A stretch of 51,780 bases of DNA. It comes from a virus. Its lineage: Duplodnaviria > Heunggongvirae > Uroviricota > Caudoviricetes. Location of the stretch: IMG/VR virus record IMGVR_UViG_2541047930_000003; one strand, written 5' to 3'. Position 1 is the first letter of the stretch. Each line of letters begins with the position of its first letter. Made by a program: the position numbers and the translations under genes. The notes under the pieces were generated by a model, which was not told where the DNA came from, made no database searches, and worked only from the letters and a program-made list of their open reading frames with translations. Positions 11,933-14,341 of the stretch are shown here, in pieces.

Positions 11933-12619
11933 ATGACCCCAATAAAAATATTTATGACTATTGCTGATTTCAAACGGCCTAAATTGGAGCTCCCAAACGG
12001 GGCAAACAAACTACTACTGCACTCTTGCTGTGCTCCATGTTCCGGTGAAGTGATGGAGGCGCTTCAGGCCTCGGGAATCGACTATACCATCTTTTTCTAC
12101 AACCCGAACATTCATCCTCAGAAAGAGTATTTAATTCGTAAGGATGAGAATATTCGCTTTGCTGAACAACACGGCGTGCCATTTATTGATGCTGATTACG
12201 ACACAGACAACTGGTTTGAACGTGCCAAAGGAATGGAATGGGAGCCCGAGAGGGGGATCCGTTGTACCATGTGTTTTGACATGCGTTTTGAGCGGACAGC
12301 GCTGTACGCTGCTGAAAATGGTTTCAGTGTGATCAGCAGTTCACTGGGCATTTCACGCTGGAAAAATATGCAGCAGGTTAACGACTGTGGGCGGCGAGCC
12401 GTCGCGCATTATCCGGGCATGGTGTACTGGGATTATAACTGGCGCAAGCAGGGCGGCTCGTCCCGCATGATTGAAATCAGCAAGCGCGAAAAATTCTATC
12501 AGCAGGAATATTGTGGCTGTGTGTATTCTCTGCGCGATACCAATCTACACCGCAAATCTCAGGGACGCCCTCTTATCAAAATTGGTCAACTCCACTACGG
12601 TAAAGAAGAGAAGGAGTGA
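11933..12619 (+). CDS. DUF208 / QueH-like protein (putative epoxyqueuosine reductase family, Fe-S), 228 aa
   Basis: N-terminal [11 protein letters not shown] motif, which I recall as the DUF208/QueH signature; further Cys (CTMCFD, YCGC); alternative start at 11954. Confidence 0.5.
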
Positions 12620-12875
12620 TTTTATGGAGCACCTTTCTTATTGATTTCATATTGGCGAGGTAGCGGGAGTTAAGTAAAATTGCTGCGGGTGCTTGAGGCT
12701 ATCTGCCTCAGGCATGAACACCAAAAGGCAGATAGAGAAAAGCCCCAGTTAACATTACGCGTCTCTGCAAGACGCTTAACATTAATCTGAGGCTCAATCT
12801 ATGCTGAACACATGTAGGTTAGCCTCTTACGTGCCGAAAGGCAAGGAGAAGCAGGCTATGAAGCAGTAAAAGGCG

Positions 12876-13013
12876 ATGTTAATCGCCCTGATCGTCATCG
12901 GTTTAACCGTCATAGTGACGGCACTGGTAACGAGGAAAGACCTCTGCGAGGTACGAATCCGAACCGGGCAGACGGAGGTCGCTGTCTTCACAGCTTACGA
13001 ACCTGAGGAGTAA
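12876..13013 (+). CDS. Hok-family type I toxin, HokD/RelF-like; canonical start disrupted by TAA at codon 4, leaving a 45-aa ORF from an internal ATG
   Basis: atg aag cag TAA aag gcg ATG tta atc...; product MLIALIVIGLTVIVTALVTRKDLCEVRIRTGQTEVAVFTAYEPEE matches the Hok TM and periplasmic domains. Confidence 0.6.
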   Translation: MLIALIVIGLTVIVTALVTRKDLCEVRIRTGQTEVAVFTAYEPEE

Positions 13014-13087
13014 GAGACCGGGCGGGAGAGTAATCTCCCGCCACCTCTGATATGTCAGGCATCCTCAACGCACCCGCACTTAACCCG

Positions 13088-13110
13088 CTTCGGCGGGTTT
13101 TTTCACGTAC
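13088..13110 (+). terminator. Rho-independent terminator after the hok locus
   Basis: cccgcttcggcgggtttttt hairpin plus T-tract. Confidence 0.65.
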
Positions 13111-13221
13111 TGTGGTTGTGAATACGATTGGTATTAGGCTATGCTAACAACATTAGCCTGACTAATTTTGTATTGACTTAATTTTTGTTAAAGAACAGGA
13201 CGAAGACGTAAGGGTACACCA

Positions 13222-13401
13222 ATGAGCTACGCACTAAAAAAACACCCGCGATTGACTATTCCCCCTCGCGATAAAAGCGTTGTGGCAGCTCCGCGCCCGG
13301 CTATCGATGAAAATTGCACTCATCGTGAGCAGGTGAAAAATGCTTTCGATTTCGGTTTTTCTCGTTACGAGAAGGCAATGGAAGATCTTTCAAAAGTGTA
13401 A
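13222..13401 (+). CDS. Small ORF (59 aa) upstream of the Doc toxin; candidate cognate antitoxin, not Phd-like by eye
   Basis: Hand translation MSYALKKHPRLTIPPRDKSVVAAPRPAIDENCTHREQVKNAFDFGFSRYEKAMEDLSKV; AAGGG RBS; stop 19 bp before the Doc ATG; below ORF-track cutoff. Confidence 0.4.
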   Translation: MSYALKKHPRLTIPPRDKSVVAAPRPAIDENCTHREQVKNAFDFGFSRYEKAMEDLSKV

Positions 13402-13419
13402 TGATGGGTATTGTGCTCT

Positions 13420-13905
13420 ATGGCTGAGATTGTTGAAGGAGTGCACTACCTTTCGGTTGATGATCTTACTGAAATTAATCGCCTTTTAATTGAGCTTCAA
13501 ACACCAGATGAACCTGTTGGTGTGCTGAGTGTTGATAATTTAAGTTCTTCTCAGTCTCGTCCCAGTATGGTTCGATGGTATGAGCAAACCAACGACATGT
13601 TTGTACTGGCATCGGTATTGATTGAAAGTCTGATTCAGAATCATCCATTTGCCAATGCAAACAAGCGCACAGCAATGATGGCTGGTGCGGTTTTTTTATT
13701 GTTAAATGGATACGAATTAACCGCACCAGGCGATGAAGTTGTGGAGATGGCTGAGGGGCTGGCCTGTAAAATTTATACACGAGAAGAGCTTGAAAATTGG
13801 TTGTGTTATTGGTCTCGTGCGTATGACAGTCGGGAATTATGTAAAACAGGCGCAACTATTGTTTTGTATGAAACTATCAAGCTTAAAATAGAACAGCAAA
13901 ACTAA
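13420..13905 (+). CDS. Doc-family (Fic/Doc) toxin (161 aa)
   Basis: HPFANANKRTA matches the Doc motif HxFx(D/N)(A/G)NKR; N-terminal region resembles P1 Doc; ATG is Met4 of ORF 13411..13905. Confidence 0.75.
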   Translation: MAEIVEGVHYLSVDDLTEINRLLIELQTPDEPVGVLSVDNLSSSQSRPSMVRWYEQTNDMFVLASVLIESLIQNHPFANANKRTAMMAGAVFLLLNGYELTAPGDEVVEMAEGLACKIYTREELENWLCYWSRAYDSRELCKTGATIVLYETIKLKIEQQN

Positions 13906-13920
13906 AGATGCTTCTAATGA

Positions 13921-13944
13921 AAACTCGCTTCGGCGGGTTTTTTG
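13921..13944 (+). terminator. Rho-independent terminator after the Doc gene
   Basis: ctcgcttcggcgggtttttt; near-identical to the terminator after hok. Confidence 0.65.
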
Positions 13945-14128
13945 TTGCGTGCTGAATATGCAGGGTGAAAAATAACCATATATTTGATTATATACACAGC
14001 CAAAAATAAAAGTCATTGTACCTGCACATTAAACAATCAAATATACGACGTGAAATAAATATTTTTCAGATTAATATTTTTGTCTCTATGTGGATATAAC
14101 CTTTTGTACTTATAAACCTGGAGGCATC

Positions 14129-14341
14129 GTGGAAAAAATAAAGAAACTATTTAGTAGCAAATACGCAGTCATACGTCGTGATGACCTGTCAGTTATAGTC
14201 GAAATGGATTACTTCCCTGAAACCCCAAAATCAATGATGTATCGTAATGGTCGAAAGGCAATTTTTTTACCGATGAGGGTAAGTGACATTATGGGAAATG
14301 ATAAACTGCTGGATGAATTGCGAGTCAGAGCATCCTGTTAG
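14129..14341 (+). CDS. Hypothetical small protein (about 70 aa) in an AT-rich moron
   Basis: ORF 14090..14341; GGAGG RBS 5 nt before GTG at 14129; AT-rich flanks distinct from neighbouring phage DNA. Confidence 0.35.
   Translation: MEKIKKLFSSKYAVIRRDDLSVIVEMDYFPETPKSMMYRNGRKAIFLPMRVSDIMGNDKLLDELRVRASC

Follow-up and report, generated by a model that had tools for sequence, protein, structure and literature searches.

It has been described that a 22-residue peptide of the antitoxin Phd (residues 52-73) binds and inhibits the toxin Doc on its own (PMC9207808), and that a Phd-C element fused to SUMO, alone, neutralises a Doc in vivo (PMC10440598). The antitoxin of the Enterococcus faecalis EFPhd-EFDoc pair (PDB accession no. 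9VZC) is AbrB-like and is bound to Doc only via a bent C-terminal helix (residues 52-79) lying in the concave surface of the toxin; this antitoxin dimerises Doc, and its N-terminal domain binds DNA through a β1-β2 hairpin (PMC13034048). The catalytic motif of Doc-type proteins has been defined as HxFx(D/N)(A/G)NKR (PMC13034048). Here we describe a pair of genes on the plus strand of the viral record IMGVR_UViG_2541047930_000003 (51,780 nucleotides (nt), the whole of which is referred to as the window), in which the gene of a 161-amino-acid (aa) Doc-family protein is preceded by that of a 59-aa protein. The pair probably constitutes a portable type II Doc toxin-antitoxin (TA) module, in which the 59-aa antitoxin neutralises its toxin via a C-terminal helix and does so without an AbrB domain, and which is carried as a moron placed after the terminator of a hok/sok locus. 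This reading is backed by the reality of the small gene, its strict synteny and co-divergence with doc, the intact catalytic motif of the toxin, the homology of the antitoxin tail, the lack of a known DNA-binding domain and the boundaries of the insertion.

The original prediction, made from the letters of the window and without database searches, had called two open reading frames (ORFs) at 13222..13401 and 13420..13905. Positions 13100-13950 are 100% identical to Escherichia coli APEC O1 (NC_008563.1), in which RefSeq annotates the equivalents of exactly these two coding sequences. For doc, the ATG at 13420 was used, the mechanical ORF beginning at TTG 13411. Its product carries the RefSeq label ‘type II toxin-antitoxin system death-on-curing family toxin’, and the Doc-type assignment that had been based on the string HPFANANKRTA (residues 75-85, nt 13642-13674) is borne out by matches to TIGR01550 DOC_P1 (E 3.8e-35, 120.7 bits, cut-off 38.65) and to the Pfam Fic family PF02661 (E 1.6e-11, 45.3 bits, cut-off 24). 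The catalytic motif is intact, with H75, F77, N79, N81, K82 and R83 invariant in an alignment of twenty diverse members of the subfamily, whose lengths range from 146 to 167 aa. Among solved structures, the closest is that of E. faecalis Doc (9VZC, E 6e-14), followed by P1 Doc (E 2e-4). Members of this subfamily possess a C-terminal extension of about 25 aa, with a conserved stretch, ENWLCYWSRxYDSRxLC, just before it; both are missing from P1 Doc and from the Docs (126-136 aa) that are linked to antitoxins of the doc_partner family (TIGR02609). Based on the Doc-type motif and on P1 Doc and EFDoc (PMC10440598, PMC13034048), the protein is predicted to be a kinase of EF-Tu that arrests translation.

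The ORF upstream of doc is a real gene under purifying selection. Compared with sixteen orthologues, its synonymous divergence (pS) is 0.67-0.97, which is saturated, and its nonsynonymous divergence (pN) is 0.12-0.30, with the C-terminal half (pN 0.05-0.28) more constrained than the N-terminal half (0.18-0.38). Furthermore, a Shine-Dalgarno sequence of the GAGG/AAGGG type is found 6-10 nt before the ATG in 17/17 loci. A single-sequence, word-indexed search with the protein gave just sixteen clusters, all at least 69% identical, a count that falls short of the extent of the family: with a profile drawn from its remoter members, approximately one hundred clusters (90% identity) of 54-59 aa were identified among Enterobacterales, Orbales, Pseudomonas, Stutzerimonas and Halomonadaceae. 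When 1.84 billion cluster representatives (50% identity) were searched exhaustively with a hidden Markov model (HMM), eighty-one clusters were obtained at E<=1e-3, nearly all of them stand-alone proteins of 42-60 aa. The earlier view of the protein as an uncharacterised partner agrees with what the databases hold, as all of the approximately one hundred clusters are named ‘hypothetical’ or ‘bacteriophage protein’, the PHROG to which it belongs (phrog_2208, E 5e-42) is of unknown function, and no description of the family was found in the literature searched, including by RefSeq accession. In PADLOC, the antitoxin had no match and Doc had only weak ones, to Fic domains. Thus the toxin has already been annotated, while its antitoxin is unannotated and, according to the literature searched, undescribed. 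Inventories of TA and defence systems count this Doc as an orphan toxin, because its antitoxin is annotated as ‘hypothetical’ everywhere.

The small gene keeps company with doc wherever this Doc subfamily was found in a species-level genome scan. A homologue of 54-59 aa ends 1-18 nt before doc in 29/29 subfamily loci, the Docs of which are 46-76% identical. A small ORF that was not conserved beside Doc homologues would have spoken against the original prediction, and the opposite is clearly observed. The pair is also located between tail genes in a Salmonella prophage, between baseplate genes in a Pantoea phage, beside the integrase or the genome end in two Pseudomonas phages, and between topA and sodC in Providencia, where it forms an isolated two-gene island, the 3 kb to each side being free of phage genes. 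Even a family member that is only 31% identical adjoins a Fic gene. The pair is seen in every locus examined across Enterobacterales, Orbales, Pseudomonas and Halomonas in unrelated genomic contexts, as a small gene directly upstream of a toxin gene and co-conserved with it, the arrangement of a type II module. The distance matrices of the two proteins are correlated (Mantel r 0.86, a value reached by 0/2000 permutations). In the window, doc starts 18 nt past the antitoxin stop codon, and 1-13 nt past it in other loci for which the junction was read; no clear Shine-Dalgarno sequence precedes doc, and the short spacing suggests that its translation is coupled to that of the antitoxin gene.

The element hosting the pair is a Rac-like lambdoid prophage, with the gene order sieB, ydaT, replication genes, QueH, Hok, the antitoxin-doc pair, nin-region genes, tRNAs, lysis genes and trkG. 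Within it, the pair is flanked by two copies, 840 nt apart, of a direct repeat, AAC[C/T]CGCTTCGGCGGGTTTTTT, each of which forms a terminator hairpin with a U-run (folding at -12.8 kcal/mol for the left copy and -14.1 kcal/mol for the right). A terminator scan missed both hairpins, which were confirmed by folding. The related phage PP818812.1 has an empty site with a single terminator copy, its left flank (hok/sok) being joined directly to the right flank; the pair thus occupies an insertion of 840 bp (13104-13943) that brings its own terminator. The GC content of this cassette is 0.40-0.46 versus 0.48-0.52 in its flanks. As the flanking genes are phage backbone and are present at the empty site, the cassette holds no third gene, and its proposed layout is leader, antitoxin, toxin and terminator. 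It was identified in 125/5426 complete E. coli genomes (~2%), with both genes present in every one and all 125 copies chromosomal; the carriers include the outbreak lineages O104:H4, O157:H7 and O121 as well as APEC O1.

These surroundings bear on another explanation, that the pair is a host-takeover device of the phage, in which Doc expressed from phage operons during lytic growth would stop host translation, and the small protein would serve as a timing inhibitor or chaperone. Doc belongs to phrog_577, which is categorised as ‘moron, auxiliary metabolic gene and host takeover’, the cassette is embedded, in several phages, in operons of early or structural genes (the nin region of the lambdoid prophage here, tail genes in Salmonella and baseplate genes in Pantoea), and the leader in the window yielded no consensus promoter. 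However, the cassette carries a terminator of its own along with a recurring upstream block, the Providencia island stands apart from phage genes, and in gene order, spacing and the antitoxin-type tail the pair matches a type II TA system. The moron architecture and the stand-alone chromosomal island make host takeover the less likely account, and we consider it quite improbable. For a type II module, a role in stabilising the prophage or island, or in abortive-infection defence, would be expected.

Evidence for the nature of the small protein came from the relatives of its toxin. In the genome scan, the genes of the three most distant Doc relatives (126-131 aa, ~27-31% identity) follow those of 75-84-aa proteins that match TIGR02609 doc_partner (E 1e-14 to 1e-20). 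A metagenome scan gave thirty-eight further doc_partner proteins, most of them followed by an ORF of 125-136 aa, mostly with the motif HxFxDGNKR; viral contigs scanned with the doc_partner alignment gave nothing. In hhalign, the 59-aa family aligned with doc_partner over 49 columns (Prob 89.7%, P 1.8e-6), and in an independent local profile-profile run (P 1.1e-5) the score was 29.7, compared with 9.4 when the profile was reversed and an average of 9.2 (sd 2.1, max 14.4) over forty column shuffles. By segment, the hhalign match resides in residues 34-59 (alone, P 1.4e-5) and not in residues 1-33 (alone, P 0.55). The decamer YEKAYRELAK is identical in Halomonas-type members of the family and in a metagenomic doc_partner. 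According to these profile comparisons, the C-terminal 22 residues of the 59-aa protein are homologous to the tail found in AbrB-type doc_partner antitoxins (...QMxAARxVMxKYxxALxxLAK), and its gene, like theirs, is directly upstream of doc.

The likeness stops at the tail. True doc_partners (L040-L042) score 53-74 bits against TIGR02609, whereas neither the window protein nor three Pseudomonas/Halomonas members of its family gave a whole-protein match to this model. The AbrB-like N-terminal domain, with its KIGNSxGVxLPKE hairpin, is absent from the 59-aa sequence, and the exhaustive search with the family profile recovered no AbrB-type proteins. Over its full length, the 59-aa family aligns colinearly with doc_partner residues 25-73, which would fit loss of the first ~25 residues including the hairpin; this is put forward tentatively, since the N-terminal part of the alignment is of low confidence. 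The original prediction had allowed for a novel antitoxin family. That proposal stands in part: the protein is not a wholly new antitoxin, because its Doc-binding tail is common to a known family, but its tail-only architecture without a DNA-binding domain, paired with an extended clade of Doc, is new. The elements that we regard as new are this truncated architecture, a conserved IPxRDK segment and the co-occurring C-terminal extension of the toxin.

As had been noted by eye, the 59-aa ORF does not resemble Phd/YefM. Zero Pfam or NCBIfam matches at E<=1 place it outside that family; in particular, there is no match to PF02604, a search of the PDB with the family profile gave chance matches only (E ~1) with none to Phd, and an AlphaFold2 (AF2) model lacks a β-α-α-β-β domain. 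Two candidate likenesses seen by eye were dropped. One, between the tail and P1 Phd 52-73, gave P 0.034 in hhalign with the match in the wrong segment (the Phd sequence having been verified against PDB 3K33/3HRY); the other, a gapless alignment to the EFPhd tail peptides, was unsupported by profile comparison.

Class I Fic antitoxins, such as VbhA and YhfG, are characterised by the inhibitory motif (S/T)xxxE(G/N). Were the small protein one of these, the glutamate of an inhibitory helix would keep the Fic active site from binding nucleotide productively. It is of similar size (55-62 aa for that class), is encoded at the same upstream position and has a helical C-terminus, and YhfG-Fic is known as an enterobacterial pair (PMC2701414). 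However, the motif is absent from the 59-aa sequence (MSYALKKHPRLTIPPRDKSVVAAPRPAIDENCTHREQVKNAFDFGFSRYEKAMEDLSKV) and from the family consensus, no Pfam family, YhfG included, is matched at E<=1, and the toxin possesses the Doc kinase-type HxFxNANKR rather than HxFx(D/E)GNGRxxR. Membership of class I is accordingly very hard to credit.

The AF2 model of the antitoxin, built from a 31-sequence alignment (mean predicted local distance difference test score (pLDDT) 77), consists of coil over residues 1-33 (pLDDT 65-78) and a single helix over residues 34-58 (80-85); residues 34-59 are also the most conserved part of the family. For a TA module composed in this way, the following course of action is proposed. 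The toxin, a Doc-type kinase of Fic fold, would phosphorylate EF-Tu and thereby arrest translation. The antitoxin, likely to be intrinsically disordered when free, would dock residues 34-59 onto Doc and neutralise it, in the manner of the C-terminal helices of Phd and EFPhd, from which this binding is predicted by analogy. It would be made in excess over the toxin, its own gene having a good Shine-Dalgarno sequence and doc depending on coupled translation that lacks one. As no DNA-binding domain is recognisable, the antitoxin is probably a neutraliser only, without a part in autoregulation. The different regulatory arrangement that had been suggested as the other possibility for this locus is plausible.

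Ahead of the helix, the family shares the motif [RK]LxIPxRDK (here IPPRDK, nt 13258-13275), of which P14 and R16 are invariant or nearly so. A reading of IPxRDK as a mimic of the EF-Tu target loop (GGRT) was dropped, as family members differ at the D and S/T positions. Among its longer members (70-149 aa), the N-terminal extensions contain no Pfam domain and so offer no clue to an accessory domain; four proteins of 98-149 aa (P0234, P0239, P0275 and P0286) have extensions of 40-90 residues, which could be mis-called starts or accessory domains fused to the IPxRDK-plus-tail module. A solo family member that is 30% identical (P0220, L128:2501-2665) was seen on a lambdoid contig between the genes of the Q antiterminator and the holin, with no doc gene or remnant after it; it may be an orphan antitoxin, or else serve the phage as an anti-Doc gene.

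Upstream of the antitoxin gene, a block, TGGTATTAG(A/G)CT, recurs ~85-95 nt before the ATG in several genera, with equivalents of window positions 13129-13140 at five other loci (L002, L016, L017, L019 and L022). Going by its recurrence, it is a candidate (extended) -10 element that would give a leader of ~80 nt. Cassettes of Providencia and Morganella (L011, L014 and L018) have a promoter of the form TTGACT ... TATAAT ~70-100 nt upstream of the ATG, the spacer of which contains a palindrome: TAATGTA-N8-TACATTA, TAATGAAA-N6-TTTCATTA and TAATGAAAG-N4-CTTTCATTA. There is compensatory change between these loci and the palindrome is operator-like, though the antitoxin is without a known DNA-binding domain.

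Such palindromes are what would be expected if the antitoxin were to autoregulate, its N-terminal segment, possibly as a Doc-bridged dimer, binding a promoter operator by way of a new minimal DNA-binding element. Conservation of the IPxRDK segment under purifying selection, the location of the Providencia and Morganella palindromes between -35 and -10, the ability of the E. faecalis antitoxin to dimerise Doc (PMC13034048), and a profile alignment that runs colinearly, with low confidence, into the β3-β4 half of the AbrB domain would all accord with this. On the other hand, no palindrome is common to the whole family among the upstream regions compared, and the enrichment of inverted repeats upstream of cassettes comes partly from the terminators of upstream genes. 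AF2 gives coil for the N-terminal segment, which by itself shows no likeness to AbrB-type domains (P 0.55), and the DNA-contact residues of EFPhd belong to the β1-β2 hairpin that is missing from the 59-aa protein (PMC13034048). Autoregulation of this kind is judged unlikely.

A more speculative idea, to which we give some limited credence, is that the antitoxin's IPxRDK segment and the toxin's C-terminal extension cooperate, forming either a composite DNA-binding surface that exists only in the complex or a surface that senses a trigger. If true, the pair would be a prophage abortive-infection system under a control unlike the conditional cooperativity of Phd-Doc, and solo antitoxins such as that of L128 would be anti-Doc counter-defence genes. 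Autoregulation or triggering by phage, in a system without a known DNA-binding domain, would amount to a new control mechanism.

Several observations weigh against the module as proposed, in which a tail-only antitoxin neutralises Doc and does nothing else. The homology of the tail rests on a profile-profile match of 22-49 columns, as the family profile has no match to the TIGR02609 HMM. The hhalign comparison with P1 Phd covered 10 columns and fell on Phd 42-51 rather than 52-73, and no similarity of the tail to the published EFPhd tail peptides was detectable. The conserved N-terminal IPxRDK segment is itself under purifying selection and could mediate DNA binding or something else, and the promoter-spacer palindromes of Providencia and Morganella run counter to an antitoxin that is a neutraliser only. 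A sigma-70 consensus scan of the leader (13104-13221) returned no site. Lastly, the AF2 model of Doc alone, from twenty close homologues, had a pLDDT of 49.8 and was judged unusable.

If the module acts as proposed, the pair is a natural example of modular antitoxin evolution, with a linear neutralising element retained and the DNA-binding domain lost. Its putative Doc-binding helix is naturally short (26 residues), which is relevant to the design of peptide inhibitors or activators for Doc (PMC9207808, PMC13034048). The features of the cassette are collected in Table 1.

Table 1. Features of the antitoxin-doc cassette and its boundaries (positions are those of the window)
Feature	Position	Strand	Basis
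Left terminator repeat copy, 22 nt (AACCCGCTTCGGCGGGTTTTTT)	13082..13103	+	Direct repeat D1; hok/sok intrinsic terminator; left insertion boundary
Non-coding cassette leader	13104..13221	+	Upstream regions compared across loci
Leader block TGGTATTAGGCT	13129-13140	+	Recurrent across genera; candidate -10 region
Shine-Dalgarno AAGGG of antitoxin gene	13210-13214	+	Comparison of Shine-Dalgarno-like motifs, 17 loci
Putative antitoxin gene, 59 aa, ATG start, WP_000119355.1	13222..13401	+	RefSeq ‘hypothetical protein’; phrog_2208; purifying selection
Antitoxin residues 1-33, proline-rich, predicted unstructured	13222..13320	+	AF2 coil; motif [RK]LxIPxRDK
Antitoxin residues 34-59 (HREQVKNAFDFGFSRYEKAMEDLSKV), single predicted amphipathic helix	13321..13398	+	AF2; doc_partner tail match; putative Doc-binding element
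Doc-family toxin gene, 161 aa, WP_000818163.1	13420..13905	+	TIGR01550, PF02661, closest PDB structures
Doc catalytic motif H75-P-F-A-N-A-N-K-R83	13642-13668	+	Doc-type HxFx(D/N)(A/G)NKR
Clade-specific Doc C-terminal extension, ~residues 137-161	13828-13902	+	Comparison with doc_partner-linked Docs and P1 Doc
Right terminator repeat copy (AACTCGCTTCGGCGGGTTTTTT)	13922..13943	+	Cassette terminator; right insertion boundary

The genes adjoining the cassette are of some interest in themselves. Directly upstream is a hok/sok type I TA locus (12687-13013; Rfam sok RF01794 at 119 bits), with the Hok/Gef peptide coded at 12876-13013; two unrelated toxin systems thus adjoin, the Doc cassette being inserted exactly at the hok terminator. 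Before it, in the early region of the prophage, lies the gene of the epoxyqueuosine reductase QueH (11933-12619; Pfam PF02677, E 1.9e-65), a tRNA-modification gene that is unusual in a phage accessory locus. Downstream, an 83-aa ORF (14090-14341) within a very AT-rich stretch (GC 0.34) matches phrog_1813, of unknown function (E 1.3e-34). It is phage backbone outside the cassette, corresponding to gp25 beside the empty site in PP818812.1.

Among known systems, the E. faecalis EFPhd-EFDoc pair (9VZC) and the doc_partner-Doc pairs have, like the window pair, the antitoxin gene immediately upstream of doc, and the C-terminal helix of the 59-aa protein, which ends in ...RYxxAhxxLAK, has its homologue in the doc_partner tail. 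Unlike the 59-aa protein, which has IPxRDK instead, doc_partner antitoxins possess an AbrB-like domain with the DNA-contacting KIGNSxGVxLPKE hairpin. Their toxins differ as well: Docs of the window type (146-167 aa) have HxFxNANKR and a C-terminal extension, whereas doc_partner-linked Docs (126-136 aa) have HxFxDGNKR, and identity between the two groups is only 21-31%.

Phd-Doc of phage P1 and Salmonella (PDB accession nos. 3K33 and 3DD7) shares with the window pair the toxin family, the type of catalytic motif and the operon order, and the same principle is expected, namely that a largely disordered antitoxin neutralises Doc by means of a helical segment at its C-terminus. However, the window antitoxin is without the Phd/YefM fold and P1 Doc is only ~19% identical to the window Doc. 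Furthermore, P1 phd-doc is an addiction module of a plasmid-prophage, whereas the window cassette is nearly absent from plasmids. In PanA of C. doosanense, a NetFlax protein, Phd-C is fused to Panacea (PMC10440598), which conveys the same idea of a short linear helix that carries Doc neutralisation and can be attached or detached. The PanA element is joined to the globular Panacea domain, whereas in the window protein nothing but a non-globular stretch of 33 residues comes before the tail. PaaA2, from the paaR2-paaA2-parE2 system carried by prophages of E. coli O157, is a largely disordered antitoxin of ~60 aa that only neutralises, as is proposed for the window protein; that system differs in having a ParE toxin and a separate regulator gene, paaR2, for transcription.

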